Source: Flavobacteriales bacterium (GTDB taxonomy: Bacteria; Bacteroidota; Bacteroidia; Flavobacteriales_F; PHOS-HE28). From it: a stretch of 64,000 nucleotides of DNA. The translations under genes and the position numbers were made by a program. The stretch lies in NCBI GenBank assembly GCA_039931265.1, contig JBDTSG010000094.1, positions 17,448-81,447 on the forward strand, read 5' to 3'. Below are positions 1 to 47,147 of the stretch, piece after piece. Numbering within the stretch: the first letter of the stretch is position 1; the number at the start of each line of letters is the position of its first letter. The notes beneath the pieces are model-generated. The model had not been told where the DNA came from. It ran no database searches and saw only the letters and a program-made list of their open reading frames with translations.

Positions 1-1140
1 GAACGCGGCCTTCGGCGCGAACGCGCTGTTCAACAACACCAGTGGCGGGTTCAATACGGCAGTAGGGATATCGGCGCTCGGAGACAACACCACCGGACCA
101 TCCAACACAGGGGTAGGTGCCAGCGCTCTGCGCTTCAATACAACGGGTGGTGGTAACACAGCCATTGGGCAGGAAGCGCTCTACACCAATTCGAGCGGTG
201 GCCAGAACACGGCCACGGGCCTGAACGCCTTGCGCCTTAATTCCACCGGTTTCGCCAACACCGCCACCGGAACAGGCGCGCTGGCTTCGAACACATTCGG
301 ATCCATGAATACCGCTGTGGGATCCAATGCGCTGTATTACAATACCGCAGCATTCTACAACACCGCCGTTGGCTTCGAGGCCCTGTTGAACACGACAACC
401 AGCGGATACAACACCGCCACAGGGCACACCGCGCTTCGGGGTAACACGACGGGCTTCAGCAACACCGCCACCGGGTACGAGGCGATGCTCAGCAATACCA
501 CTGGATCACAGAATACCGCGAACGGTGCCGGGGCATTGTACTCCAATACCACCGGGGGCAATCTCACGGCCTTTGGCTCCCACGCGCTCTATGCCAACAC
601 GATCGCGAACACCAATTCCGCGTTCGGCTACTACGCGTTGGCGAGCAACACTACGGGGCCCGGCAACACAGCGATGGGAACGAACACACTGACCGCCAAT
701 ACCACCGGTTCGAGCAACACGGCCCATGGAACGGTCGCGTTGTCCTCGAACACCACCGGATCCGAGAACACGGCCTCGGGTCGTTCAGCACTCCAGAACA
801 ACACTACCGGTTGGTCCAATACCGCAATGGGCTATTCCACTCTCCTGAACAACACCACCGGATCTGCCAATACAGTGGTCGGTGTACGCGCTGGTCTGTT
901 CACCGCAACGGGAGCCAACAACACTGTCGTAGGCTACGAGGCACTTTATTGGAACAGCACCGGCAACGACAACACCGCCACCGGATATGGCGCACTCTAT
1001 TCGAACACCACCGGACTGTCGAACAGCGTGCTGGGAGCGTTCTCCCTCAACAACAATACTTCGGGCACCGCCAATGTCGCGCTGGGTGTGGCCGCATTGA
1101 CCCTTAATACCACGGGTAGCAACAATACAGCGGTGGGCGT
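1..1140 (+). repeat. Tandem ~51-bp (17-codon) coding repeats inside the tail-fibre-like gene
   Basis: The NTxxG…AL…NTTG peptide motif is periodic throughout the translation. This generates many spurious antisense and out-of-frame ORFs in the six-frame track for this region. Confidence 0.7.
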
Positions 1141-1720
1141 TTGGGCCGGTCCGAACTCCGGGGCCCTCGGTGGTACCATTGCGATAGGCTACTACGCCGC
1201 GGCCACCATCAGCAACCGTGCAGTGATCGGCACAGTGGCGAACAACAACCTCACCGGTGGATACGGGGCTTGGCAAAACCTCAGCGACGGGCGGTTCAAA
1301 CGTCGAGTGCAGGAGGATGTGCCGGGCTTGGCATTCATCACCAAACTGCGTCCGGTCACCTACACCTTGGATGCGCGCGCTGTGGATACCTTCCTCGGCA
1401 TCGCGCAGCGCATGGACACTGTTCCGGACGAAGCGGCAAAGGCGATGTACAAAGAGCGTTTGGCTGAAGTCTCGACCGAGGTGCAGACCGGCTTCATAGC
1501 GCAGGAAGTGGAGGCCGCAGCCCAGAGCATCGGGTATGACTTCGCAGGTGTTCATCATCCTATTTCGGATGCGGACCATTACACGATCGGCTACGAATCG
1601 TTCGTGATGCCGCTGGTGAAATCCGTACAAGAGTTGAACGATCGACTCGAAGAATTGCGCCGAGTGAACACCGTTCTGCTCGCTCGCATGGCGAAGTTCG
1701 AGGAGGGGATCGGCCAATAG
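1..1720 (+). CDS. Repeat-rich tail-fibre-like protein (5' partial) with C-terminal peptidase S74 / endosialidase-type intramolecular chaperone domain
   Basis: The reading frame is open from position 2, in frame with the tracked ORF 230-1720. More than 25 copies of a ~17-aa NTAxGxxAL-xxNTTGxx repeat are present. The C-terminus (…SDGRFKRRVQ…GFIAQEVEAA…ELNDRLEELRRVN) matches the S74 chaperone-domain pattern of phage tail fibres and endosialidases. Confidence 0.8.
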   Translation, partial: NAAFGANALFNNTSGGFNTAVGISALGDNTTGPSNTGVGASALRFNTTGGGNTAIGQEALYTNSSGGQNTATGLNALRLNSTGFANTATGTGALASNTFGSMNTAVGSNALYYNTAAFYNTAVGFEALLNTTTSGYNTATGHTALRGNTTGFSNTATGYEAMLSNTTGSQNTANGAGALYSNTTGGNLTAFGSHALYANTIANTNSAFGYYALASNTTGPGNTAMGTNTLTANTTGSSNTAHGTVALSSNTTGSENTASGRSALQNNTTGWSNTAMGYSTLLNNTTGSANTVVGVRAGLFTATGANNTVVGYEALYWNSTGNDNTATGYGALYSNTTGLSNSVLGAFSLNNNTSGTANVALGVAALTLNTTGSNNTAVGVWAGPNSGALGGTIAIGYYAAATISNRAVIGTVANNNLTGGYGAWQNLSDGRFKRRVQEDVPGLAFITKLRPVTYTLDARAVDTFLGIAQRMDTVPDEAAKAMYKERLAEVSTEVQTGFIAQEVEAAAQSIGYDFAGVHHPISDADHYTIGYESFVMPLVKSVQELNDRLEELRRVNTVLLARMAKFEEGIGQ

Positions 1721-1778
1721 GTCAAGTCGGATCGGAGTCCGCCTGCGGAAAAGTGCATGCGAAGCGCAAGGGCACGCA

Positions 1779-1925
1779 CCCCCATCTTCGCCGCCCCGAT
1801 GGAAGCCCTCCACCTCTCCCACCGCCTGCGCCGCTTGTGCCGCGCGGTGGACATACTACAGGCCGACCTGCGGCAGCGCTCTGTGAACGAGCACTGCCGG
1901 ACGGGAACGAGAAGCGGATGGAGCA
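1779..1925 (+). pseudogene. Truncated, frameshifted copy of the 5' part of the small ORF at 6315-6602
   Basis: Direct reading shows ~88% nucleotide identity to 6297-6452 (ccccatcttcgccgccccgatgga…gtgaacgagca…gagaagc[a/g]gatggagcatggc). A 1-nt indel after 'gtgaacgagca' switches frame (VNEHCRTGT… in one frame, …DGNEKRMEHG… in another). The copy diverges completely after ~1925. Confidence 0.45.
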
Positions 1926-2036
1926 TGGCCAACCCTTAGTTTTGGATGCTCCCCTTTGCCGCAACAGTTGATGTGCGTGACGATCAGATGTGCTGCTGCG
2001 GTGCGTTGCCGTGCAACCGTTCTCGTTCGGTACGCC

Positions 2037-3698
2037 ATGGTCTGCACCACCTTGCTTTTGGCGGCTGCGGAAGCACACCCACAAGCAACAGCGCCCAGGG
2101 TTGACGGAGTTACAGGCTCGTGCCAGGAACATGTGGCACGCGCGAAGGAGCTGCTGCCGCTTGATGCGGATTCGGCACTCGTGCATGCCTTGGCAGCCGA
2201 AAAGCAGCTGGGCGAGTTGCGCACCAGCGATGAAAAGTCACGCGCGCTGATCGTCCTCGGCGATGCGCACCTCGCCGTGCGGGACCTGCCTGCGGCCATG
2301 AGCGCCTTCCAACGGGCGCAACGGCTGGTGGACGAAGCCGTGCGGCAGGAAGGCACCCTTCCGTCACTGGTGCTGTCCCGGTCGGACATCCAGGCGAAGA
2401 CCGGCCTCCTGTATTTCTACCTGCGCGATCCGGACAAGAGCATCGACTGCTACAACGAAGCCCTCCGCGGTCTGGAACAGCTGCACGACCTGGATACGAA
2501 CGAGCTGGCCCTGCGCAAGGTGCGTCTGTTCAACAACATCGCCGGGGTTTATGTGCAGCGTTCGGACCATGCCACTGCACTGCCGTATTTCCAACAGGCC
2601 GTGGAGATGAACCGGCCGCTGAACGACACGCGCAACGAGAGTTCGTTGAACAACAACATCGGCATCTGCCTGATGGAAATGGGCGAGCATGAGCGGGCCA
2701 ATGAGTATTTCCTGAAGTCGCTGGCGGTGCGCAAGGCAGCCGGCGATGCGCGCGGGCAGGCGCAGGTGCTGAACAACCTGGGCAAGAACCAAGTGTTCTT
2801 CGGCCACTTCGGTGCGGCGCGCGACAACTTCGAACAGGCACTCGCGATCGGCCGGGAGATCGGCAGTCGTGAGTCGATGGTGATCTCGTTGGAATCGCTT
2901 TCCTCCGTGTGCGATACGCTGCACGACTACAAAGCCGCCCTGGCGGCCCACCGCGCGTTCAAGACCCTCAACGATAGTTTGTACAACGCCGACACCCGGC
3001 TGACCATTGCGCGGCTGGAAGAGGAATTCCGCCGGGACAACGAGCGTGAGGCGTTCGCGTTGGATGCCGAACGCAAGGATGCGGAGAGCGCGCGCAGGAA
3101 GGTCTGGAACATCGCGCTCGGCGGTGCGCTGTTCTTCCTCCTTCTCACCGCCTTCCTCGTGGTGAAGATCCTGCGCGCCCGCGTGCGCACCGGCGTGCTC
3201 GAAAAGGAGAAGCTCCTACTGGAGAGCGGGAAGCTGGAAGCCGAGCAGACCATCCTCAGGGACAGCCTGGAGTTCAAGGACCGCGAGCTAACGGCCAACG
3301 CCTTGTTCCTGTTGAAGAAGAACGAGCTCATCGGCCACATCGCCGAGCGCCTTCTGAAGGCGAAGCCCACCTTCCGGCAGGAGAACCAACAGGTGATACA
3401 GGAGATCGTTCGCGATCTGCACTCCAACCACGACGAGCACAATTGGAAGGAGTTCGAGGCGCACTTCACACGGGTACATTCCACCTTCTACGAGAGCCTT
3501 CAGGAGCGCTTCCCCGCGCTCACTCCGAACGAGCGGAAGCTCTGCGCCTTCCTACGTCTCAACATGTCCACGAAGGACATTTCCGCCATCACCCAGCAGA
3601 CGCTCAACAGCATCACCGTGGCGCGCTCGCGGCTGCGAAAGAAACTCGATATCGAGGGTGAGGAGGTGAATCTCGTCGACTTCCTGCAGTCGATCTGA
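2037..3698 (+). CDS. TPR-repeat sensor/regulator with a single TM helix and C-terminal LuxR-type HTH
   Basis: An N-terminal signal-like segment is followed by TPR-like helices, a hydrophobic segment (IALGGALFFLLLTAFLVVKIL), a coiled coil, and the C-terminal motif LTPNERKLCAFLRLNMSTKDISAITQQTLNSITVARSRLRKKL typical of LuxR/GerE HTH. The ATG at 2037 was chosen over the TTG at 1956. Confidence 0.8.
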   Translation: MVCTTLLLAAAEAHPQATAPRVDGVTGSCQEHVARAKELLPLDADSALVHALAAEKQLGELRTSDEKSRALIVLGDAHLAVRDLPAAMSAFQRAQRLVDEAVRQEGTLPSLVLSRSDIQAKTGLLYFYLRDPDKSIDCYNEALRGLEQLHDLDTNELALRKVRLFNNIAGVYVQRSDHATALPYFQQAVEMNRPLNDTRNESSLNNNIGICLMEMGEHERANEYFLKSLAVRKAAGDARGQAQVLNNLGKNQVFFGHFGAARDNFEQALAIGREIGSRESMVISLESLSSVCDTLHDYKAALAAHRAFKTLNDSLYNADTRLTIARLEEEFRRDNEREAFALDAERKDAESARRKVWNIALGGALFFLLLTAFLVVKILRARVRTGVLEKEKLLLESGKLEAEQTILRDSLEFKDRELTANALFLLKKNELIGHIAERLLKAKPTFRQENQQVIQEIVRDLHSNHDEHNWKEFEAHFTRVHSTFYESLQERFPALTPNERKLCAFLRLNMSTKDISAITQQTLNSITVARSRLRKKLDIEGEEVNLVDFLQSI

Positions 3699-3849
3699 GG
3701 CTTTCCGGGGTCCTTGTTCAAATCGCGGCGCGTCAGGCGGTTAGCCCTTTTTGTAATGCGGATGTAAGGTGGTGCCGTCGCTTCTGTGCAGTGGATGTTG
3801 GGCCTGTACCGGCACCCTGGTTCCGTGGCGCGGGCACTTTTGCGCCGTC

Positions 3850-4035
3850 ATGCAAAACACCACGACCGGTCCCGAACAAGAACCTCTTCCGCCATCGGAC
3901 GATCTCGATCGTCTGGAGCAGACTTTTCGGCACTTGAAGGAGAAACAGGAGGCTTGGCGCAAGCTGCTTGAGAGCATTGAAGGAATGAAGAAAGGATCAC
4001 CCGAAAAACCCGAAACCGAACAACCATCGACATGA
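3850..4035 (+). CDS. Small hypothetical protein (~61 aa)
   Basis: An ATG-initiated sub-ORF of track ORF 3769-4035. Its stop overlaps the start of the next gene (ATGA), which suggests translational coupling. The sequence is charged and helical (…LEQTFRHLKEKQEAWRKLLESIEG…). Confidence 0.3.
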   Translation: MQNTTTGPEQEPLPPSDDLDRLEQTFRHLKEKQEAWRKLLESIEGMKKGSPEKPETEQPST

Positions 4036-5618
4036 AAACACAACTCTCTTTCATCGGCGGACTCTGTCTGCTGCTCTGTGCAACCGCCCAGGCGCAATCC
4101 GGCGCGCTCGATCCTTCGTTCAACAGCAACGGCTTCGTCGTGCAACCCATCGGGCGCGATGTGGTGCAGAAGATCCTGGTGCAGGACGACCAGAAGATCC
4201 TCTCCATCGGCATGAGCTGGGATGGCACATTCACCGCGCATGCCCACGTGTTCCGGTACAATCCCGATGGCTCGCCCGATACGGACTTCGGCACCAACGG
4301 CATGTTCACCCACACATTGGACAACGAGGCCCTGCTCTATTCAGCCCTGATCACCGATGCGGGCAAGATCCTCCTGGTGGGCAGCACCACCGATTACCAG
4401 ACCTACCGCTTGATGCTGATCCAGATCAATGCGGATGGAACGCTGGACTCCTCCTTCGGCACCAACGGCGTTGCGCTCCAAAGCGTGAGCATGGTAGGAC
4501 CGAACGCAGAGGACATGGCCTACGACGTGACGCTCGATGACGCGGGCAATATTCTCGTCTGCGGATCTTCCTACGATGCGAACTATGTCCGGCGTCCTGT
4601 GGTCGTGCGCTTCACATCGGATGGTGTGCTCGACAGCACCTTCGGTGTCGATGGCGTGGCCACCATACCGGTGATGGCCGTGGGCGCCTCTTCGTTCCAA
4701 GGGCTGCTGGTGCAGCCCGATGGGAAGATCCTTGCAACGGGCTATTTCGGCCAGACCGAATTCTGGTACCTGCTGCTCCTGGTGCGCTTCAACAGCGACG
4801 GAAGTCTGGACAGCACCTTCAGCACAGATGGCATCATCAAGCACAACCATGGTAACGTGGACGACGAGGGTGAAGATCTCAAGCTGAATGCGGACGGTTC
4901 CATCCTGGTGGCCGGTATGACGGTGACGGCCACCTACAACTACAGCGCGCTGCTTATGAAATTCACACCCGACGGCGAGGTGGATCTCACCTTCGGGAAC
5001 GTCGGTGCGGTGGAAGAGGACCTGGACGAGTTCGACTACGCCGCGCACTTGGAAGTGCAGTCCGATGGCAGGATCATCATGGCAGGATCATCGGGCGTTG
5101 GGCCGCCCAGCAGTTTCGACATGGCCGTGTGGAAGTACATGCCCGATGGAACGCCGGACAACAGCTTCGGCTCCAACGGCCTCGCTTACCATGTGATCCC
5201 GGACTACAGCACCATGATCTACGCCCTGGCCATGCAAGCCGATGGCAAGATCCTGATCGGCGGACAGGCCGCTACGCCGAACAACGACCGCTACTTCTTC
5301 ACCGCGCGATTGGAGAACGATGTGATCAGTGGGATCGCCAGCGTGCCGTCACCGACCGAGGCCTTGGCCTTCCCGAACCCCGCAACGGCGGGCTCCTTGG
5401 TTACACTGCGCATGGCAGAGCCGATCGGTAGCGATGCCCGCATCGAGTTGTATACGGCTGACGGTCGCGACGCAGGCAGCTACAGCGCACACGAGTTCGA
5501 TCGCGCTGCCGGAGGTGTGAGCCTCCAACTACCGGACGGACTCAACTCCGGCGTCTACCAAGTGGTGCTGTCACAAACGGGTACGCGCAGTACATCGACC
5601 ATGCTCGTGATCGAGTAA
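4032..5618 (+). CDS. Secreted beta-propeller protein (delta-60-like repeats DxxFGxxG…DGKIL) with T9SS C-terminal sorting domain
   Basis: There is a signal peptide (MKTQLSFIGGLCLLLCATAQA). Repeated ~50-60-aa units of 'LDxSFGxNGxx … DGKILxxG' are followed by a C-terminal ~90 aa ending …GVYQVVLSQTGTRSTSTMLVIE, which fits the T9SS CTD pattern. Confidence 0.8.
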   Translation: MKTQLSFIGGLCLLLCATAQAQSGALDPSFNSNGFVVQPIGRDVVQKILVQDDQKILSIGMSWDGTFTAHAHVFRYNPDGSPDTDFGTNGMFTHTLDNEALLYSALITDAGKILLVGSTTDYQTYRLMLIQINADGTLDSSFGTNGVALQSVSMVGPNAEDMAYDVTLDDAGNILVCGSSYDANYVRRPVVVRFTSDGVLDSTFGVDGVATIPVMAVGASSFQGLLVQPDGKILATGYFGQTEFWYLLLLVRFNSDGSLDSTFSTDGIIKHNHGNVDDEGEDLKLNADGSILVAGMTVTATYNYSALLMKFTPDGEVDLTFGNVGAVEEDLDEFDYAAHLEVQSDGRIIMAGSSGVGPPSSFDMAVWKYMPDGTPDNSFGSNGLAYHVIPDYSTMIYALAMQADGKILIGGQAATPNNDRYFFTARLENDVISGIASVPSPTEALAFPNPATAGSLVTLRMAEPIGSDARIELYTADGRDAGSYSAHEFDRAAGGVSLQLPDGLNSGVYQVVLSQTGTRSTSTMLVIE

Positions 5619-5663
5619 AAAGAGGAAGGAGCACACGAAGCCACCACCGGCTACCTTGGCATC

Positions 5664-6284
5664 ATGCGTTCCATGATCCTGTTGTTGGTGGTGGCTGCTT
5701 GCTTCCCTGCTTGCTCCCCCACCGGTCCCTCCACAGCCCCATCTGCGGTTGTCACGCGCGAACAGTTCCAGGAGATCCGTTGGATCGTGGGCAGATGGCG
5801 AGGGGCTGAGGCCGGCGGACCGCCCTTTTTCGAGAGCTACCGTTTGGTCGATGACTCCACGCTTCAAAACTTCGCTTGGAGCGATAGCACCTTTTCGAAC
5901 CCCATCTTTTCAAGTGTCATCAGCCTTCGCAATGATCTGGTCACCTCATCATTGCTTAACAGAGGGGATAGCGTTTCAGTCCGATTCTACTTTGAGAAAT
6001 TCAACGCGGTCGATGACAGCACGCTTCGTGACACCAATTGGCTCGATAGCATCAGCAGGGACCCCTACACCATATGGGTCATCACTAACACGGATACGAG
6101 CAGTTCATCAATAGCTACCAAATGGGATGGCGCATCGGTACACTTCGAGCCGAACGGGAAAGCAGGGAACACCTTCACCTGGCGAAAAGAAAGCGCCGAC
6201 CGGTGGAGCGCCCAGCTCTTCTGGAACGACAAGAGCGGTGCTCCGCAGACGCGCACGTACGCCATGACGCGCGTTGCGCAGTAA
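5664..6284 (+). CDS. Hypothetical lipoprotein
   Basis: The start is ATG. The signal sequence with lipobox (MRSMILLLVVAACFPACS) is followed by 200 aa of Ser/Thr/Trp-rich sequence with no motif I recognise. Confidence 0.7.
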   Translation: MRSMILLLVVAACFPACSPTGPSTAPSAVVTREQFQEIRWIVGRWRGAEAGGPPFFESYRLVDDSTLQNFAWSDSTFSNPIFSSVISLRNDLVTSSLLNRGDSVSVRFYFEKFNAVDDSTLRDTNWLDSISRDPYTIWVITNTDTSSSSIATKWDGASVHFEPNGKAGNTFTWRKESADRWSAQLFWNDKSGAPQTRTYAMTRVAQ

Positions 6285-6314
6285 AGTGGGGCGGTCCCCA
6301 TCTTCGCCGCCCCG

Positions 6315-6602
6315 ATGGATGCCCTGGACCTCTCCCGCCGCCTGCGCCGTTTGCGCCGCGCGGTGGACATGCTGCAAGCCGACCTGCGGCAGCGCTATGT
6401 GAACGAGCAATTGCTGGGCGAGATCGAGAAGCAGATGGAGCATGGCATCGCCACCGATGCGCGCTGCACCGGCCTGCGCACGCACGTGGACACCTTGCGC
6501 GAAAACACGCTGACGCCACGACCGGAACTATTGGTGGATACCGCTCGCGCCTGCGAGCAGCTGAAGTTCGCGATCGATGGGGTGGTGAACGTGTTGCACT
6601 GA
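6315..6602 (+). CDS. Small hypothetical protein (95 aa); 5' end duplicated at 1779-1925
   Basis: The ORF starts with ATG and lies immediately downstream of 5664-6284. Its first ~45 codons plus ~20 bp of leader recur downstream of the tail-fibre-like gene. Confidence 0.5.
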   Translation: MDALDLSRRLRRLRRAVDMLQADLRQRYVNEQLLGEIEKQMEHGIATDARCTGLRTHVDTLRENTLTPRPELLVDTARACEQLKFAIDGVVNVLH

Positions 6603-6679
6603 GCGCGTGCGCTTGCGCCACTTGCCTCCTTCACCCCCATCTCCCTCTTCGCCATTCACGATCCGCCGCTCGCTGGTCC

Positions 6680-8290
6680 TCAGTCCTTCACGAACTTCAA
6701 CCGTTGCACGGGTGATCCATCGTTGGGCTTGAGCGTAAGCACATAGCTACCGGGGGCCAACGTGGAGACGTCGATGCCGCGTTCATCGGTTGTGCCACTG
6801 GCCAGCGCCAGCCTGCCCTTTTCGTCCAGCACAGCATAGGTGCACGGCGCGCGCAAGCCTTGCAAATGCAGTCGATCGCCCGCCGGGACCGGGTACAGCG
6901 CGCAGCCCGGCCGCTCGGGGCCCTCGATACCGGTGAAGGCATCGGCCAGCTTTGCCACGAACACATCGCGCACGGCCGGTTGACCGGCAAGGCCGGGCCC
7001 GGGATCGAACTGCATGGATGTTTGGAAGCCACCGGTAATGAACACATCGCCCCCCCGCAAAGCGATGCCACCGACGGTCTCCGAAAGTGGTCCGCCGCAA
7101 CCCTTGGCCCACAGCACATCGCCACTTGGCGAGAGCTTGGCCACATACGCGTCCGCGCCTCCGTTGGTCTGGAGCGCAACGTTGCCCAAGGTGAGCGAGC
7201 TGCCGAAGGTGCCGTTGACGTAACTGTTGCCCTCCGCGTCCGACCGGATGCCCACGGCCCGATCGCTGCCCGGCCCTTCGCCGCGCGTGGCCCACTGAAA
7301 GGTGCCGTCCGCACTATCGCATTTCGCAACGAACACATCGTAGCTCATGTCGCTCGGCCCGGGAAGCGTAAGCCCGCCCATGGCGATGGTGCCACGGTAT
7401 GTACCCGTTACGTAAGCGTTCCCCTGCGCATCCATGTCAACGCTTTGGCCGAAAGCATAGCCGCCCTCGCCTGCTTTTTGCGCCCAGATGGGCACCCCAT
7501 CGCTGTTGAGCTTGGCAACATAGATGGTGGCTTCTGGGGATCCGGCATCCAGGGTGAACGCGCCGAGGGTGATCGAGTTGAAGAACTCACCGGTGATGCA
7601 CAACTCCGCCGCATCGCCGGCGCAGATGCCATCGCCGAGGTGCGCAACGCCGTAGTCCTGGGAAAGCGTGGTCCAGAAAAGCGTTCCGTTGTAGGCGAAC
7701 TTCGATACGAAGACCTTCGAGCTTGAAAGGTTGAAGGGTGTCAGGTGCAGGTCGCCGGTCACGTAGATGTTGTAGTACCCATCGTGGGTGATGCTGGCGC
7801 CATAGTCGTAACCGGTATCGCCGATGGAGTGGGCCCAAACCGGTGTTCCGTCCTGCTCGTATTTGGCAACGAACACATCGAAGGAACCGGCGGAGGTGAG
7901 GATCGTTCCGTTCGTGCCGGGAATGAAGGCGACCGTGCCTTGGAACATGCCGACGATGGCGATGGCGCCCCCGTAATCGATGGTGATGCCGTGCACGGCG
8001 ATGCCCGGCCCGTTGGCCACGATGTGTGCCCACTGGAGCGTTCCGTCCGGAGCGAACTTGGCCATGAAGATGCCGTCCTCGTTGGGCGTGGAAAGCAGCT
8101 GGCCCCCGAAACCGATGGTGCTGTTGTAGGTGCCCACGACCACGCTATTGCCCTGCGCGTCCACGGCTATGGCCTGCCCTGCGGCATCGGCCGCACCGGC
8201 CCCGGGTTCGGCCCATTGCCATGTTTGGGCATGGAGCATGGATGCGGAGAGAAGTAGGGACAGGAAAAGGGGGCGTGGAGAATGGCGCAT
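6680..8290 (-). CDS. Secreted beta-propeller (SBBP-type repeat) protein with T9SS C-terminal sorting domain
   Basis: An internal Met gives a signal peptide (MRHSPRPLFLSLLLSASMLHAQ). Repeated GxxxDxGxxIAVDAQGNxYVTG units are typical of SBBP beta-propeller repeats. The C-terminus (…GSYVLTLKPNDGSPVQRLKFVKD) is CTD-like. Confidence 0.8.
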   Translation of the reverse strand: MRHSPRPLFLSLLLSASMLHAQTWQWAEPGAGAADAAGQAIAVDAQGNSVVVGTYNSTIGFGGQLLSTPNEDGIFMAKFAPDGTLQWAHIVANGPGIAVHGITIDYGGAIAIVGMFQGTVAFIPGTNGTILTSAGSFDVFVAKYEQDGTPVWAHSIGDTGYDYGASITHDGYYNIYVTGDLHLTPFNLSSSKVFVSKFAYNGTLFWTTLSQDYGVAHLGDGICAGDAAELCITGEFFNSITLGAFTLDAGSPEATIYVAKLNSDGVPIWAQKAGEGGYAFGQSVDMDAQGNAYVTGTYRGTIAMGGLTLPGPSDMSYDVFVAKCDSADGTFQWATRGEGPGSDRAVGIRSDAEGNSYVNGTFGSSLTLGNVALQTNGGADAYVAKLSPSGDVLWAKGCGGPLSETVGGIALRGGDVFITGGFQTSMQFDPGPGLAGQPAVRDVFVAKLADAFTGIEGPERPGCALYPVPAGDRLHLQGLRAPCTYAVLDEKGRLALASGTTDERGIDVSTLAPGSYVLTLKPNDGSPVQRLKFVKD

Positions 8291-8539
8291 GGTGATGGGG
8301 AGTTGGCCCTGTGGACGGATGGACGGGAAAACAGGCCCTGCACGCTGCACGGGCGCGGCCCAACCGTTGAAAGTGCCTTGAACGGTGCCATCCCTGCGAC
8401 CGGCAGTACCCTGACAAAAGGCACGCCGGGGGCTGGCAAGTCGCGCCGCCAGCGCCCACTTAACAAGCAATATGAGGTGCGGAGCAGCAGAATGGCCGCG
8501 AAAGAGCTTCCTTCGCGCACCCGGCCGTGCCGGGACACA

Positions 8540-8761
8540 ATGAGTGCAGCAGAAAAGCCCAGGAGCATCCTTTCGTCGGGATTCATCAAGATGAAGGTGA
8601 AGGCGATCACGAACCGCGCGGAGAAGAAGAAGGCCTGCGAGGCCTATTTGGCGCAGATGGCCGGCCAGCGTTTGGAGCAGAAACGCAGCCGGAGCAAGGT
8701 GGACGATACCGACGATACCATCCGCTTTTTGGAGATGGAGATCGCCCGCCTGAGCGATTGA
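8540..8761 (+). CDS. Small basic/charged hypothetical protein
   Basis: The ORF is in frame with track ORF 8282-8761. Alternative starts lie at 8492 and 8591. It is Lys/Arg-rich and helical (…AEKKKACEAYLAQMAGQRLEQKRSRSKV…). Confidence 0.3.
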   Translation: MSAAEKPRSILSSGFIKMKVKAITNRAEKKKACEAYLAQMAGQRLEQKRSRSKVDDTDDTIRFLEMEIARLSD

Positions 8762-8838
8762 GCGATCCGCTCAGCCGCAGCCTCTTTCCGCTCCGATAGG
8801 TTCGGTCCGTACCTGCGCGCTAGGCACAATGTGCTTTG

Positions 8839-10071
8839 TCAGATCGTGGCGTCGCGCACGCGTTCGCGCTTCACCATCCTTTCCAACGCGTACAGCAACG
8901 CCACTGCCACCAGCAGCATGCCGGTGAAGAGGTACCATGTGGCCGCGTAGCCGAAGTGCGCGATCAGGTTAAGCCCGAGGGTATGCCCGAGGATGTGCGC
9001 CACGCTCCACGCGATGGTGAAGAGCGCCATGTACGCGCCGGGCTGTCCACGATCTGACCGATCGTAGGCGAAGCGGTTCATGAACGGGAAGTTGAGCATC
9101 TCGCCCACGGTAACGAACACCATGCCCACCCACAGGAAGCCGACCACCGGAAAGACATTGAGCACCACGAAGCTGAGGGCGATGAGCAGCACGCTGGAAC
9201 GCAGGGTGGCGTGCAACGCGAAGCCGCGCGTTTCGCAGTATTTCACCAGCGGCATTTCCAAGAGGAAGATGAGCAGGCCGTTGACGCCGAGCAGTACGCC
9301 GATGTATTCCTCGCTGAGGTGGTGCACCTGGCTGTAGAACAAGGGGATCGTGCTGAAGTACTGCAGGAAGGGAATGCTGATGAGCACAGTGGTGAGCAGG
9401 AAGAAGATGTAGGGCTTGTCGCGGTACGGTGAGCCGGTGGCGCTGGAACGCGCGGCCACGCCGTCCTTCATCGCTTGTTTCCGCGGAAGTCCGGACCACA
9501 TGAGGGCCGCCGCCGCGAAGCATGTGAGACCGTCCACCCAGAAAAGCCCGCCGTAACCCCAACCGGTGATGATGAGCCCACCGATGGCCGGCCCCATGCT
9601 GAAGCCGAGGTTGATGGCCAAGCGGATCAGCGATACCGCGCGCGTGCGGTCCTCGGGCCGCGCATAGCTGCGCAGCGCGACGAACATGGCGGGGCGGAAA
9701 GCATCGCTCAGCACCATGAGCACGAAGACGCCCACACAGAACGGCACGAAGCTGTGCGCGGTCTGCAACACGAGGAAGGCGACGCTCGAGGAGAGCAGCG
9801 CACCGATCATGATGTCGTAGAAGCCCAGCTTGTCGGTGAGCTTGCCACCGAGCCAGGAACCCAGCACCGAACCCGCGCCGAAGCAGCTCATGATCCAGCC
9901 CACCTGCTCGAGGGTAAGGCCCATGTCCTTGGTGAGGTAGAGCGAGAGGAAGGGCACCACCATGGTGCCCGCGCGGTTCACGAACGTTACGAGCGCCAGC
10001 AACCACACCTCCCGGCTGAAGCCTTTGAAGGAGTCCACATAGAAACGGTAAGCCTTGGCAAGCGCGCGCAC
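8839..10071 (-). CDS. MFS transporter
   Basis: Twelve hydrophobic segments are present. The loop motif LTDKLGFY/GxLxDRxGrk after TM2 is characteristic of the major facilitator superfamily. The start is GTG. Confidence 0.85.
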   Translation of the reverse strand: MRALAKAYRFYVDSFKGFSREVWLLALVTFVNRAGTMVVPFLSLYLTKDMGLTLEQVGWIMSCFGAGSVLGSWLGGKLTDKLGFYDIMIGALLSSSVAFLVLQTAHSFVPFCVGVFVLMVLSDAFRPAMFVALRSYARPEDRTRAVSLIRLAINLGFSMGPAIGGLIITGWGYGGLFWVDGLTCFAAAALMWSGLPRKQAMKDGVAARSSATGSPYRDKPYIFFLLTTVLISIPFLQYFSTIPLFYSQVHHLSEEYIGVLLGVNGLLIFLLEMPLVKYCETRGFALHATLRSSVLLIALSFVVLNVFPVVGFLWVGMVFVTVGEMLNFPFMNRFAYDRSDRGQPGAYMALFTIAWSVAHILGHTLGLNLIAHFGYAATWYLFTGMLLVAVALLYALERMVKRERVRDATI

Positions 10072-10134
10072 GCGGCAAACCTATCGGTGCGCCGGGATCG
10101 GGATCGAACAAGCAGTACCAACCGCACCCCCGTG

Positions 10135-10542
10135 CTACTCCATCTCCACGGTGAAGGAATTCGCGCGCACCAAGGTTTGCGGACCGAGGACATGGAAGCC
10201 ATTGCGCACGGGCGCATCAGCGATGCGCGTGATGCTGTCCGGGACGAGGATGATGCGCGGCGTGCGCGCACCGAGCGGGGCGCGGAAGAGCACCTTCACA
10301 TCGTGCATGCCCGTCTGCTTGTCGGGCCACAGCGGTTGCACCGCCAGCACGTCCATCGTCAGGAAGCGGTCGCGCGGTGTGGCATAGAGGAACCCGCCCT
10401 TGAACTCGGGACGCCAGTCGGGCGGCAGCACGCGTACGACCGTGCTGCCATTGAACAACGTGAACTGGAACTCGCCGGAGGATTGCGCCAACGCAGCACG
10501 CGGCACCAGTGCAACGAGCGCTATGAGGATCCACCGTGTCAT
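10135..10542 (-). CDS. Secreted hypothetical protein (~135 aa)
   Basis: An internal ATG gives a signal peptide (MTRWILIALVALVPRAALAQ). There are no recognisable motifs. Confidence 0.6.
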   Translation of the reverse strand: MTRWILIALVALVPRAALAQSSGEFQFTLFNGSTVVRVLPPDWRPEFKGGFLYATPRDRFLTMDVLAVQPLWPDKQTGMHDVKVLFRAPLGARTPRIILVPDSITRIADAPVRNGFHVLGPQTLVRANSFTVEME

Positions 10543-10596
10543 GCCGCCCTGCGCGCAACAAGCCTGCCGCGCGCCATGGCGTGACAAAGTAGCCGC

Positions 10597-12201
10597 TCAC
10601 TCCTTCACCACGCGCGTGCGCATCACCTGCGCGCCGCGCTGCACCAGCACCGTGTAGGTGCCCGGTGAAAGTCGCAGGCCCAGTTCGTTGCCCAGACCCG
10701 CAGCCTCTTCCACCGTGCGTCCGCTGGCATCGATGATGCGCACCGCAACGGCAGCATCGGAAAGCGCTCCGCCACTGACCAAGTGGAAGGAGGTGGAGAA
10801 AAGTGAAGGGCAAGCAACGAGACCGGCTTCGGCTTCCGCGATCAGCCCGATGCCGGTGCCCAACGCGGGATCAACGCGCGCTACCACGGAGCCACGCACG
10901 GCCATGGGATCCACGGTGAACGGACCGAAGGTGAACGGATCGCCGGTGGTGGCCACGAGATGGCAGATGCCGTCGTGCGTTACTGCAAGGTCGTGCACCA
11001 CATCGAGGGAAACAGCGCTACCACCCTCGATATGCGAGCGAGCGATGCCCGCGTTATCGAAACTCAACAGGCTGACCTGCTCTGTCTGCAAACCGCCGGT
11101 GTTGGAGACCATGCCGTTGCCCCAATCCACACTGCCGGAAACATTGCCCAGCACGTAGGCGTTCCCATCGTCGTCCACGCCGAGACCCATCCCCTGCCCT
11201 ATTCCGAAACGACCGATGATGCCGGCTTGCGGAGGTTCAACGCCCCATTCGAACACGCCCGAGCTGTCGAGGCGGGTGAGGAAGAAGGAAGTGTTCCACT
11301 CCGGCGCATTGAAGTGCACGTTGCCCCACGATACCGAGTCCAGCTGCGATCCGAGCAGGTAGGCGTGATCTTCCCCATCGGCCACCACACGCGGACGTTG
11401 GAAGGTGACATCGTGCGCGATGTGCAACCATTGTGCATCGCCCGCAGCGTTCATGCGCGCCAGGAAGAAGTTGTATTGCTCCACCACCGGAAAGGTGGTG
11501 CCGTTGATCGACACGCTGGGTACCGAAGCCGAACCCGAGACGTACATGCCGCCCGACGGATCGAAACAGATGTTGCCGATCGTCTTGGTCTCGAGCAAAA
11601 GGCGCGTGATCACCGGAAGTCCGTCGTTATTGAGCCGCACCAGCTTGGAGCCGAAGAAGGTGGAGAGGGCCACCCAGAGCTGCCCTTGCGGATCGAACGC
11701 GAGCGAAGCCACGCTCACATCATCGATCTGCCCGCCGGACTTGTCGTGCTGCCACAGCAACAGACCGTCCGCATCGAACGCACAGATGAAGGATCCCATG
11801 CCCGTGTGGAACGGAGGCACGGCCACCGTGGGATCGCCATCGATCACCAAGTGCCCGAAGTAGCGCCCACCGATCACCACCGTACCGGCCGCGTTGCTGG
11901 TGATGCTCTCCACCTTCACCGAATCATTGAGCACGACGGTCCACACCGGATCGCCGTTGGCATTCAACCGGGAGAGCGAATTGCGGCCAAGGATGTCGTT
12001 CCCATAAAGGATCGTCGCGGAGTCGAGGCCTGCCACGTACACATGATCGGGATCGCGTGCGCAGAGCACATCGGTCGGGAGGCTCGGGTTCAAGTTGAAG
12101 GAATTCGGCGCGACCGTGAGCCACTGCACCTGTTGCGCGGAAAGGAGTTGCGGGAGGAGGCTTGCGGCGAGTGCGGCAGCGAAGAATGAAGTGCGGAACA
12201 T
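10597..12201 (-). CDS. Secreted protein with T9SS C-terminal sorting domain
   Basis: An ATG start gives a signal peptide (MFRTSFFAAALAASLLPQLLSAQ). A beta-rich body is followed by a C-terminus (…GTYTVLVQRGAQVMRTRVVKE) that is CTD-like. Confidence 0.75.
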   Translation of the reverse strand: MFRTSFFAAALAASLLPQLLSAQQVQWLTVAPNSFNLNPSLPTDVLCARDPDHVYVAGLDSATILYGNDILGRNSLSRLNANGDPVWTVVLNDSVKVESITSNAAGTVVIGGRYFGHLVIDGDPTVAVPPFHTGMGSFICAFDADGLLLWQHDKSGGQIDDVSVASLAFDPQGQLWVALSTFFGSKLVRLNNDGLPVITRLLLETKTIGNICFDPSGGMYVSGSASVPSVSINGTTFPVVEQYNFFLARMNAAGDAQWLHIAHDVTFQRPRVVADGEDHAYLLGSQLDSVSWGNVHFNAPEWNTSFFLTRLDSSGVFEWGVEPPQAGIIGRFGIGQGMGLGVDDDGNAYVLGNVSGSVDWGNGMVSNTGGLQTEQVSLLSFDNAGIARSHIEGGSAVSLDVVHDLAVTHDGICHLVATTGDPFTFGPFTVDPMAVRGSVVARVDPALGTGIGLIAEAEAGLVACPSLFSTSFHLVSGGALSDAAVAVRIIDASGRTVEEAAGLGNELGLRLSPGTYTVLVQRGAQVMRTRVVKE

Positions 12202-41900: not shown

Positions 41901-44900
41901 TTGCGATCGAAGGGGCGACCCGTCCCGTGGACACCTTGCCGTATGAAGTGGAATACCGTGTGGTCCATCCGGATGGCTCCATCCATTGGGTGCTCGCCAG
42001 AGGGCGGTCCATCTTCACGGATGCCGAGCAGGGCAGGGAACTCCTGAGCTTCAATGGTACCGTGATGGACATCACTGCACGGAGGGCGGCGGAGGATGCC
42101 CTGCGCATGAGCGAGCAGCGCTACCATGTGCTGGCGGACAACCTGCCGCAGATGATCTACATCGGCGACCTTACCGGCAAGGCCATTTGGGTGAATGACC
42201 GATGGGTGGAGTTCACCGGCCTGAGCAGCGAGGATGTGATCGCCGGAAAATGGGCCGAGGCTGTTCACCCGGATGATGCCGGGCCAATGATGGAGAGCTA
42301 CATGCAGTGCTTCGCAAAGGAGCAGGATTGGGAGTTCACCTTCCGGATCAAGAACAAGCAAGGCCAATACCGCTGGTTCCTTTCGCGCTGCTCACCGCTA
42401 CGTGGAGAGAACGGCGAAGTGCTGCGTTGGTTCGGAACCAACACGGACATCACAGAGACCAAGCGGGCAGAAGAAGTGCTACGTTCACAGGCGGAACGCC
42501 AAACGTTCATGGTGCGGTTGGGCGATGCGTTGCGTCCCCTGCTCGATCCCGTGGAGGTGCAAGCTGAGGCGAGCCGACTGCTGGCCGAGCAACTCGGTGC
42601 GGACAGGGTGGCGTATTTCACCATCAAGGATGAACAGTACATCGTGGAGCGCGACCACGCCGTCGGTGTTCCATCCGTCGTCGGGGGATATCCGGTCGCG
42701 GCCTTCGGTGACAAACTGTTGGCCACTTACTTGAGCGGAATAACGGGGCTGAGCGACGATGTGCGGCGTGATCCGAATTTCACATCGGCCCAGATCGAGG
42801 CGTACGACGCGCTCCAATTAAGGGCTTTCATCGGGGTGCCCTTGGTAAAGGATGGAACCTTGGTCGGTGGCCTGTCCATACATAGCGCTCAACCCCGCTC
42901 ATGGACGGCGGAGGAGATCGCGATCGCCGAAGAGACGGCCGAGCGCATCTGGGCCTCAGTGGAGCGCACACAAGCAGGAGCCGCCATGCGCAGCAGTGAG
43001 CAACGGTATCGCATGCTGTTCACCACCATGGAGCAGGGGTTCTGCGTGGTCGAGATCGTCGATGATGAAAACGGGAATGCCATCGACTACCGCTTTGTGG
43101 AAGTGAACCAGGCGTTCGAAACGCACACCGGCCTCTCGAATGCCGCGGGCAAGACCATTCGCGAACTCGTACCGGATATCGAACCGATCTGGACCGAGCG
43201 CTATGCCCGCGTGGCGCGCACTGGCGAGGCAGCGCGCTTCGAGGATCATGCCCCAAGCATGGACCGTTGGTTCGATATCTACGTGTATCCGATGAAGCAT
43301 GCTCCGGGCCGCGTAGGCATCCTGTTTTCCAACGTGAGCGAACGGAAACGCGCAGAAAGGGAGCTCGCCACCAGCGAAGAGCGCTTTCGCCTGCTCAGCG
43401 ACAACATCGCCCAACTTGCTTGGATAGCCGAGCCGGATGGCGCCATTCATTGGTACAACAAACGCTGGTTCGAATTCACCGGCACCACATTGGAGGATAT
43501 GCGAGGTTGGGGCTGGCAGAAGATCCACCACCCGGAGCATGTGGATCACGTAGCGGCGAAATTCAAACACCACATCGAGAACGGCATCGACTGGCAGGAC
43601 ACCTTCCCTATTCTGGGTGCTGATGGCAAATACCATTGGTTCCTGTCCCGTGCGTTCCCGGTGCGCGATGAGAAAGGGACCATCCTGCGGTGGTTCGGCA
43701 CCAACACCGATGTGACCGAATTGCGCGAAGCCGAAGAACGCCTGCGCGAAAGCGAAGTGAACTTCCGAATGTTGGCCGACAACATGGACCAACTGGCCAT
43801 GATCACGGATGCCGATGGAAAGGCTGAATGGTTCAACAAGCGATGGCAGACCGCACTGGGCGTGGACTTCGCGAGCCTGAGCCGTGAAGAACGCTTAAGC
43901 TGGATGCATCCTGATGATGTTGAGCGCATGTGGAACGCGTTCCGGAATGGATTGGCCTCCGGCAAGCCGTGGGATGCGACTTTCCGGATGCGGGTGAGCA
44001 GCGGTGAGTACCGATGGTTCCTTACCCGTTCGGTTCCAGTTGCCGGGCATGAAGGCGAAGTGCTGCGTTGGTTCACCACGAACACGGACATCACCGAAGC
44101 CAAGCAAGCCGCGCAAGTAGTGCAGGATCGTCAGGACCGGTTGATGTCTGCTGCCGAAGCGGCGGAGCTGGGTGTGTTCATGTGGCATATCCACAAGGAT
44201 GAACCCTCGTGGGAGAACGACCGGATGTTCGCCATTTTCGGTCGCACGCGGGAGGAAGGCCCCCTGACCAGTGCGGCGTTCGAACGGGAAGCGGTGCATC
44301 CAGAAGATCTGCCCGGCCTGCGCGAAAAGGTGGCCGGTGCAGTGGCAGAGGTGGGCGCATTCGATCATGTGTTCCGCATTCATCGCCCTGGGGAGAAGCA
44401 ACCCCGTGTTCTTCAAGTGACCGCCCAGGTGCAACAGACCAGCGGAACACCGGACCGCATCGTGGGTGTAATGGCGGACATCACGGACCGCGAAACGGAC
44501 GCCGAAGCGGCACGGCGCTTGGCGGCCATCGTCGCATCCACCCATGACGCCGTGATCAGCAAAGACCTCAACGGGATCATCACCAGTTGGAACCAGGCCG
44601 CCACCGAGGTGTTCGGCTACACGGCCGAGGAGACTGTAGGACGATCCATTCTGATGCTCATACCGGAGGAACTACAAGGCGAGGAGGCGACGATCCTGGC
44701 CCGGTTACGCAAGGGCGAGCGGATCGAGCACTACGAGACCGTAAGGCAGCGGAAGGATGGAACCCGCATCGAGGTGGCGCTTACAGTATCGCCCATCATA
44801 ACGAACGAGGGCGTTGTGATCGGCGCATCGAAAGTGGCGCGGGACATTTCCGAACGCAAGCGTTTGCAACAGGACATCACCACGGCGAACGAACAGTTGC

Positions 44901-46367: not shown

Positions 46368-47147
46368 TCACTTCAAAGCCCGACCGAGAAAACCCTTTGC
46401 CGCTTCGTTGAACACCTCAGGTGCTTCCGCGTTGGGCAAGTGTGCCGCATCAGGAACGATCACCAAATGCGCCCGGGGCACCGACTTGCTCATTGTTCCG
46501 CTTTCGGTGCTGGGGATCAGCGTATCCCGCTCTCCGGCAATGATCAACGTTGACACATGGATCCCGGCCAGCATACCGGTTCGATCAGGCCTTGCGGCCA
46601 TGCCGCGCAAAGCAGCAACAACGCCATCCACACGTTGTTCAGCCATCATCGACCTGATGGATGCACCGAGTTCAGGTCGTGCGGCAAGCGTTGTGGGCGC
46701 CAGCATCTTCGGAAGCATGTCATCGGCCAACCGGGCCACGCCTTTGTCCAGCACCGCGAGGGCCGTTGCCTCTCTGGCGCTCTTTGCTTCATTGCTGTCC
46801 GCGCCAGCCTTGGTGCTGCAAAGTATCAGGCCCCGAAGCGCTCCGGGAAAGCGTGCGGCGAACGCCAGCGCAACATACCCCCCCATTGATAACCCGCAGA
46901 TCACAGCACCAGTGATACGCAAGTGCTCGAGCAGCGTCTTCACATCCGCTGCGTGCTCCTCCATTCCCATGGTGGCAGGCACATCAGTGGCAGCGCCGAA
47001 GCCGCGCAGGTCCGGTACGATCAGACGCGCGCTGTTGCGCAATCCGTTCAACTGCGGCTCCCACAAACGCCGATCGTGCGGAAAACCGTGGATGAGCACC
47101 AGCGGAATACCTGTGCCCACTTCGGAATACGGGAGAAGTCGTGTCAT
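46368..47147 (-). CDS. Alpha/beta-fold hydrolase
   Basis: The HG oxyanion motif is IPLVLIHGF and the nucleophile elbow is GLSMGG. Length and motif order are typical of the family. Confidence 0.85.
   Translation of the reverse strand: MTRLLPYSEVGTGIPLVLIHGFPHDRRLWEPQLNGLRNSARLIVPDLRGFGAATDVPATMGMEEHAADVKTLLEHLRITGAVICGLSMGGYVALAFAARFPGALRGLILCSTKAGADSNEAKSAREATALAVLDKGVARLADDMLPKMLAPTTLAARPELGASIRSMMAEQRVDGVVAALRGMAARPDRTGMLAGIHVSTLIIAGERDTLIPSTESGTMSKSVPRAHLVIVPDAAHLPNAEAPEVFNEAAKGFLGRALK

Follow-up and report, generated by a model that had tools for sequence, protein, structure and literature searches.

A decayed 5′ fragment of the orphan gene E95 in front of a TPR-repeat gene: a probable gene relic in a Flavobacteriales genome

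The repeat of about 150 nt in this 64,000-nt stretch of Flavobacteriales DNA (called the window below, at its full length) is made up of two members of unequal standing. Copy 2 is the beginning of an intact gene for a 95-amino acid protein, designated E95, and copy 1 is very probably (at about 85%, as judged from sequence comparison) a non-functional relic of the 5′ part of the same gene, which would have been joined to the upstream block of a TPR-repeat gene by a lineage-specific rearrangement and would have drifted neutrally since then. Copy 1 is homologous to the intact gene, truncated and frameshifted; its decay is asymmetric and mostly nonsynonymous; it meets the TPR-gene block at a sharp junction, and the fragment is absent from the relatives. 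The features of the locus, in window coordinates, are as follows.

2–1720, + strand: gene for a tail-fibre-domain protein, left flank of copy 1, running off the left end of the window (Pfam Peptidase_S74; open from base 2)
1780–1929, + strand: copy 1, probable relic 5′ fragment of the E95 gene, pseudogene (motif ATCTTCG at 1784–1790, ATG at 1799, codons 1–44)
1930–2036, + strand: conserved upstream block of the TPR gene, beginning at the copy 1 junction (canonical Bacteroidota −7 box TAGTTTTG at 1937–1944)
2037–3698, + strand: gene for a TPR-repeat protein of 553 aa, between the copies (Pfam TPR_12 and related; NCBI protein P0026, 553 aa, 100% identical)
4032–5618, + strand: DUF5122 beta-propeller gene, between the copies (Pfam DUF5122, 6e-48; orthologs 66–81% identical)
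5664–6284, + strand: predicted lipoprotein gene, 206 aa, directly upstream of copy 2 (N-terminus MRSMILLLVVAAC, lipobox-like VAAC)
6296–6446, + strand: copy 2, repeated part of the intact E95 locus (motif ATCTTCG at 6300–6306, ATG at 6315, codons 1–44)
6315–6602, + strand: E95 gene, 95 aa, predicted four-helix bundle, orphan family (homologs, codon pattern, AlphaFold)
6680–8470, − strand: T9SS-type SBBP beta-propeller gene, between E95 and the MFS gene (Pfam SBBP and Por_Secre_tail, below or near the score cut-offs)
8839–10071, − strand: MFS transporter gene, conserved convergent partner of E95 (synteny)

First of all, 1780–1929 and 6296–6446 are 88.7% identical over 151 alignment columns, with 134 matches, 16 substitutions and a single 1-nt gap that lies in copy 1 between 1892 and 1893, and since BLASTN gives an E-value of about 3e-51 for the pair, the repeat is not a product of chance. 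Both copies include an ATG (1799 and 6315) and an identical 19-nt leader. The edges are abrupt: shuffled sequence scores as well as the flanks (80 nt on the left, 100 nt on the right), and these flank alignments revealed no homology past the repeat on either side. Much of what the earlier note had read from the letters is retained, namely a repeat of ~150 bp at ~88% identity, the presence of a small-ORF ATG in both copies, the continuation of copy 2 into an intact 95-aa ORF (6315–6602), and the 1-nt indel of copy 1 followed by divergence after ~150 bp, which correspond to the deletion between 1892 and 1893 and to the abrupt right edge. Its coordinates (1779–1925 and 6297–6452) give the right location, with ends that are off by a few bases. 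The copies had also been placed ~20–40 bp after the upstream stop codons; the measured distances are 60 nt for copy 1 (stop of the tail-fibre-like gene, 1718–1720) and 12 nt for copy 2 (stop of the lipoprotein gene, 6282–6284). Its view of a duplication at the DNA level, not of protein paralogy, agrees with the truncation and the frameshift of copy 1.

The position of both copies just after the stop of a plus-strand gene, together with the inclusion of non-coding leader, would agree with the earlier idea of the repeat as a mobile 3′ cassette or a repeated regulatory element that trails secreted-protein genes. This is now exceedingly improbable. Only two copies exist in the 64-kb window, where the further copies that BLASTN might have brought to light did not appear; no inverted repeats of 40 nt or more were found, nor dispersed copies, terminal inverted repeats, a target-site duplication or a recombinase; the three genes between the copies carry no recombinase domain (Pfam: TPR, DUF5122/SBBP or no match), PHROGs and PADLOC gave no transposase-like match, and there is no compositional anomaly between the two copies. 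E95 itself has no match in any of the three collections of plasmid, phage and IMG/VR sequences. It is found once per locus in 77 of 83 sequences, and about 95% of the 80 related loci hold it as a single copy with conserved synteny. As for a regulatory element, neither an Rfam match nor a conserved RNA fold accompanies the repeat, and its leader motif is not enriched elsewhere in the window. Nor does E95 systematically keep company with secreted-protein genes on its upstream side, where the neighbours are not the same in different genomes: a CHU_C protein, small ORFs and a lipoprotein are encoded there, and in one case a MarR-type regulator gene lies on the opposite strand.

On the strength of its protein clusters, its related loci, its coding-type conservation and a confident structural model, E95 is a real gene. 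The homologs form 25 protein clusters of 92–105 aa (all but one of 92–95 aa), all from Flavobacteriales/Bacteroidota MAGs, and relatives occur at 42 species-level genome loci and 35 metagenome loci, 77 in total. The information content at codon positions 1, 2 and 3 is 1.27, 1.53 and 0.71 bits, so the conservation is of the coding type. The AlphaFold model (pLDDT 90.8) predicts helices at residues 3–25, 31–45, 49–66 and 70–94. The family is small, orphan and restricted to high-GC Flavobacteriales MAGs, with only 37 representatives among 1.84 billion protein clusters at 50% identity. A profile search of the 95-aa product, as had been proposed earlier, found no Pfam family above threshold: a weak match is DUF5955 (PF19380), which aligns with residues 5–45 at E = 4e-4 and 21.1 bits against a gathering cut-off of 27.1. 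DUF5955 resembles E95 in being a small helical protein of about 90 aa; it differs in that the score is sub-threshold and the N-terminal half alone is covered, and membership of E95 in DUF5955 is rejected on this evidence. NCBIfam, PADLOC, PHROG and PDB sequences gave no match, and Foldseek returned generic four-helix bundles only, at E ≥ 0.4. As a separate observation, protein P0166 (117 aa), which belongs to the L036/L070 type of E95 and comes from another assembly, has E95 residues 1–60 fused to an unrelated C-terminus and adds another case of a truncated E95. For the 206-aa lipoprotein encoded just upstream of E95, no Pfam or NCBIfam match was obtained. E95, tightly linked to the MFS transporter gene, forms a well-defined orphan family that would be a candidate for work on its function.

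Compared with this parent, copy 1 holds the 19 nt of leader and codons 1–44 of 95, and nothing more. Since these codons cover helix 1 and most of helix 2 only, a product of copy 1 would be unable to form the bundle. A 1-nt deletion at codon 32 shifts the frame, and the substitutions that separate the copies comprise 11 nonsynonymous and 5 synonymous changes, with 0 in the leader. The differences were polarised with the orthologous locus L002 and six other orthologs as outgroups: of the 17 differences, 13 show the outgroup (L002) state in copy 2 and 1 shows it in copy 1. Among the replacements on copy 1, R8H falls in an invariant column, and R14C, M19I and I37N fall in columns that are at least 90% conserved. 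In other words, copy 1 combines nucleotide homology to an intact parent (88.7%, 151 nt), truncation with a disabling mutation, and relaxed selection relative to the parent (11 versus 5 changes, 13 of 17 differences on copy 1, R8 lost). Because of the truncation, the frameshift, the 13 of 17 differences that lie on copy 1 and the changes at invariant residues, copy 1 is interpreted as a neutrally decaying pseudogene fragment. Such a pattern is the signature of neutral drift on copy 1 of about 0.1 substitutions per site, with the parent apparently held by purifying selection in the meantime, and as this drift is of the order of 0.1 substitutions per site, the duplication would be neither recent nor functional at the protein level.

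At its right end, copy 1 runs directly into DNA that belongs to the TPR gene. From 1927–1930 on, the window is homologous to the regions upstream of the TPR gene at the related loci L003, L009, L033 and L043, and a consensus, CCAAsCCTTAGkTTTGG, is common to five genomes (window 1929–1946, L003 2721–2740, L043 4512–4530, L009 3227–3245, and L033). Upstream of this block, nothing further is conserved in these genomes. The block contains TAGTTTTG; the window has only five other matches to TAnnTTTG. E95 codon 44 (...CATGGC) is joined onto this promoter block just before the TAGTTTTG box. Since the microhomology at the right junction amounts to at most 2–3 nt (GC or GGC), the junction is of the illegitimate type. 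Six relatives (L003, L009, L033, L043, L083 and L084) were found to carry no E95 fragment upstream of the TPR gene, so the rearrangement is taken to be specific to this lineage.

The copy 1 junction is covered by one assembly, a MAG contig, and chimeras can occur among contigs assembled from metagenomes; the independent Logan contig L001 spans copy 2 only, no independent contig was found across the copy 1 junction, and searches for exact matches to the TPR protein, made with two alternative starts, gave no result. A chimeric join is nevertheless a most improbable source of the structure: the 2–3 nt shared at most at the junction are too little for a k-mer mis-join, and the 17 pseudogene-like differences between the copies would not be expected from mis-joining the same gene.

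The neighbourhood of the two copies shows which of them is in place. The common arrangement in relatives is TPR (+), DUF5122 (+), a variable stretch, E95 (+), a variable interval of 0–9 kb and the convergent MFS gene (−). The order TPR–DUF5122–E95–MFS is found in L003, L009, L033, L043 and L083, and in the simpler genomes L004, L021, L034 and L035, E95 directly adjoins the MFS gene. Since this macro-synteny is common to the relatives, copy 2 is considered to be in the ancestral position. Most genes of the variable stretches code for secreted proteins of the T9SS type, and close relatives already differ in them. One such case is the SBBP gene at 6680–8470 (−), whose product is 74% identical in amino-acid sequence to its L003 ortholog (given as 822–2300 and as 831–2441, −); it lies downstream of E95 in the window and divergently beside the TPR gene in L003, and the L003 ortholog of the DUF5122 protein carries a T9SS sorting tail. 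By these comparisons of gene order, the E95 locus is heavily rearranged between relatives.

Some further observations concern the same DNA. A small ORF at 8554–8763 lies downstream of E95 in the window and upstream of E95 in L002. In L005 (10510–11245, −), the MFS gene that converges on E95 is broken into two called genes of 73 and 177 aa, and is probably a pseudogene. Far to the right in the window, a 65-nt direct repeat occurs three times (42413–42477, 43676–43740 and 44054–44118; 60–80% identical, with spacings of 1263 and 378 nt), which probably represents repeated domains within one or two large genes.

The left edge of the repeat is also instructive, for it lies 4 nt before a motif that accompanies the E95 start codon throughout the family. 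This motif, sATCTTCG, begins 11–15 nt before the E95 ATG, with a spacer of 4–8 nt, and is exact in 43 of 69 distinct E95 5′ regions; ATCTTTG, AACTTTG and ACCTTCG are its variants in others. Since the motif does not keep a fixed frame with respect to the ATG, it is not coding, and an upstream extension of the E95 reading frame through it is ruled out by the same 11–15 nt spacing. A regulatory RNA is likewise rejected: there is no Rfam match in window positions 1–11000 at E ≤ 1, and RNAalifold finds 0 pairs, and hence no conserved fold, in the 5′ regions of 44 orthologous sequences. Nor is ATCTTCG a general expression signal, since it is not enriched elsewhere in the window, where only one other ATCTTCG stands before an ATG at an E95-like distance, at 46705. 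The earlier idea of a conserved regulatory or leader element is thus upheld as far as a conserved leader motif is concerned and dropped as a general signal, the motif being specific to E95, to which it belongs.

It has been reported that the −7 box of the flavobacterial sigmaA promoter, TAnnTTTG, occupies −12 to −5 relative to the transcription start (PMC9723704). If the E95 motif were such a box, the spacer of 4–8 nt would leave the E95 mRNA a 5′ UTR of 0–4 nt. Of the 6 defined positions of TAnnTTTG, sATCTTCG agrees with 4, and its variants ATCTTTG and AACTTTG agree with 5. The likeness to the Bacteroidota box consists in the common A, TT and G, in the fixed short distance to the start codon and in the canonical boxes that the MFS and TPR genes of the window have at the corresponding place; the difference is that the initial T is lacking and that most genomes have C at position 7. 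The motif may well be a non-canonical −7 box of a nearly leaderless mRNA, and a binding site for an alternative sigma factor or a regulator would fit equally well. The MFS gene has a canonical −7 box of its own, TAGGTTTG at 10083–10076 (−), and since this box stands only 4 nt before the GTG start (10071–10069), a leaderless transcript is implied there. Together, the start-adjacent motif of E95 and the canonical MFS box 4 nt from its start suggest leaderless-type expression in high-GC Flavobacteriales.

In copy 1, the first 24 nt, which comprise the motif, the ATG and two further bases, are unchanged relative to copy 2. An unchanged run of this length has p = 0.044 at that position, a post hoc value, and a run of 24 nt anywhere in the repeat arises in 64% of random placements. 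Since the run is mildly unexpected where it stands, some retained promoter activity of copy 1 is possible. A stronger version would hold that the fragment has been kept because it brings the promoter box and the start of E95 directly in front of the TPR gene, which would then be transcribed or regulated together with E95 and be preceded by a short uORF of 46–60 codons that ends in the −7 box of the TPR gene. The identity of motif, ATG and first 24 nt would agree with this, as would the stop of the fragment ORF (TAG, 1937–1939), which falls inside the TAGTTTTG box of the TPR gene, and the position of the motif, from which a −7 box would leave 0–4 nt of 5′ UTR (PMC9723704). Against it, the 24-nt identity is not significant when the position is left free, the TPR gene still has its own conserved −7 box, the relatives do without such a fragment, and the coding part of the fragment decays neutrally. 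Retention of copy 1 for its promoter is therefore regarded as unlikely, and a relic that happens to carry the motif is preferred.

Copy 1 is not the only partial E95 copy in the family. At 4 of about 75 distinct loci (the window, L003, L004 and L061) a second, partial copy accompanies the intact gene, on the same strand, within 1–4.5 kb and with unrelated genes between. In L003, a 3′ fragment with codons 64–95 (11254–11346) is 93% identical over 75 nt, has a different C-terminal tail and lies 1 kb downstream of the intact gene, beyond a gene for a secreted-type protein of 280 aa. In L004, a full-length, twice-frameshifted copy (1110–1410), bounded by the motif and the stop codon, lies 2 kb upstream and is a mosaic, with 72% identity in its 5′ part and 87% in its 3′ part. 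In L061, a 5′ fragment (85–171 and 314–393) lies 3.1 kb upstream, with FeoB between. Truncated or fused E95 N-termini also occur among the family representatives.

It might be supposed from these cases that E95 is a recombination anchor or breakage hotspot at which neighbouring cargo genes, mostly for T9SS-secreted proteins, are exchanged, and that the partial copies are scars of such events. The occurrence of second copies in four distinct lineages speaks for it, as do the mosaic structure of the L003 and L004 copies, the E95-flanking genes that differ even between close relatives, and the truncated or fused N-termini. The control genes of the same loci show second copies at 0 of 37 (MFS) and 0 of 9 (TPR), numbers too few for a significant contrast with E95; no recombinase, inverted repeat or conserved core site has been found; and the breakpoints differ from case to case (codon 44, codon 64, whole gene). 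A hotspot is consequently a doubtful explanation. More speculative and slightly less probable again is the full form of the idea, in which E95 would be a recurrent anchor for cargo swaps with the intact gene regenerated each time, at least four independent scars would have been left, and a leaderless-type promoter may be donated to the TPR gene. The partial copies may simply reflect a plastic locus. These scattered copies mark a locus where the turnover of T9SS cargo genes could be studied.

The L004 pair bears on another question, namely whether copy 1 could go back to an old second paralog of E95 in front of the TPR gene, partly homogenised by gene conversion and later truncated. The mosaic paralogs of L004 are consistent with gene conversion, and a homology edge at the leader motif would be expected from conversion between unrelated contexts. 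Yet the six related genomes show no relic upstream of the TPR gene, and almost all differences are derived on copy 1, which fits a young duplicate that has decayed. An old paralog is accordingly rated very unlikely, and a lineage-specific copy of the E95 5′ end is retained as the origin of copy 1.

How this copy arose can be outlined as follows. The E95 leader and the first 44 codons would have been copied next to the TPR upstream block by an illegitimate join, in this lineage. Three routes fit the final structure, and each of them is deduced from that structure. In the first, a 4.5-kb tandem duplication of 1930–6446 would have created a novel joint exactly at 1929|1930, after which the upstream duplicate would have been lost or replaced up to the E95 leader. 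In the second, a circular intermediate carrying the 5′ end of E95 would have been inserted by a single crossover. In the third, DNA would have been imported from a strain of the same species in which another gene preceded E95, and the ragged right end of the fragment would have fallen in codon 44. Since nearly all divergence is derived on copy 1, the copies would have been almost identical at the time of the event, which fits an intragenomic or within-population origin of copy 1. After the event, the fragment would have drifted neutrally by about 10%, and the intact gene would have stayed under purifying selection.

The left flank invites one more comparison. The tail-fibre-domain gene has a PHROG tail spike match at 1.9e-77, and more than 900 of its homologs are chromosomal in Bacteroidota; besides its Peptidase_S74 chaperone domain, it shows 51-nt periodic repeats (eight in-register 27-nt copies). 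A prophage att site beside this gene was considered and found unsupported, in view of the more than 900 chromosomal Bacteroidota members and of L085, the contig of the closest tail-fibre homolog, which has no E95 downstream. The locus does resemble the direct repeats left by integration (attL/attR) or a Campbell-type insertion, in that the end of a gene is duplicated in direct orientation, flanks unrelated genes and leaves the target gene intact on one side. It differs in that there is no integrase between the copies, in that the TPR and DUF5122 genes between the copies do not form an insertion, five other genomes having them in synteny with E95, and in the size and divergence of the repeat, which is 150 nt long and 11% diverged.

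The closest known counterpart of copy 1 is the bacterial pseudogene that arises by partial duplication, also called a gene relic or remnant, and copy 1 appears to be an ordinary one: a pseudogene scar in a rearrangement-prone locus, for which reason annotation of the repeat as a gene, as a mobile element or as a regulatory RNA is to be avoided. With this class it has in common a truncated copy of the parent in the same locus, a frameshift, radical replacements at conserved residues, asymmetric decay and absence at the orthologous position in relatives. What distinguishes it is that its parent comes from an uncharacterised orphan family, and that it has kept the conserved promoter-proximal motif of the parent and is itself joined to another gene's promoter.
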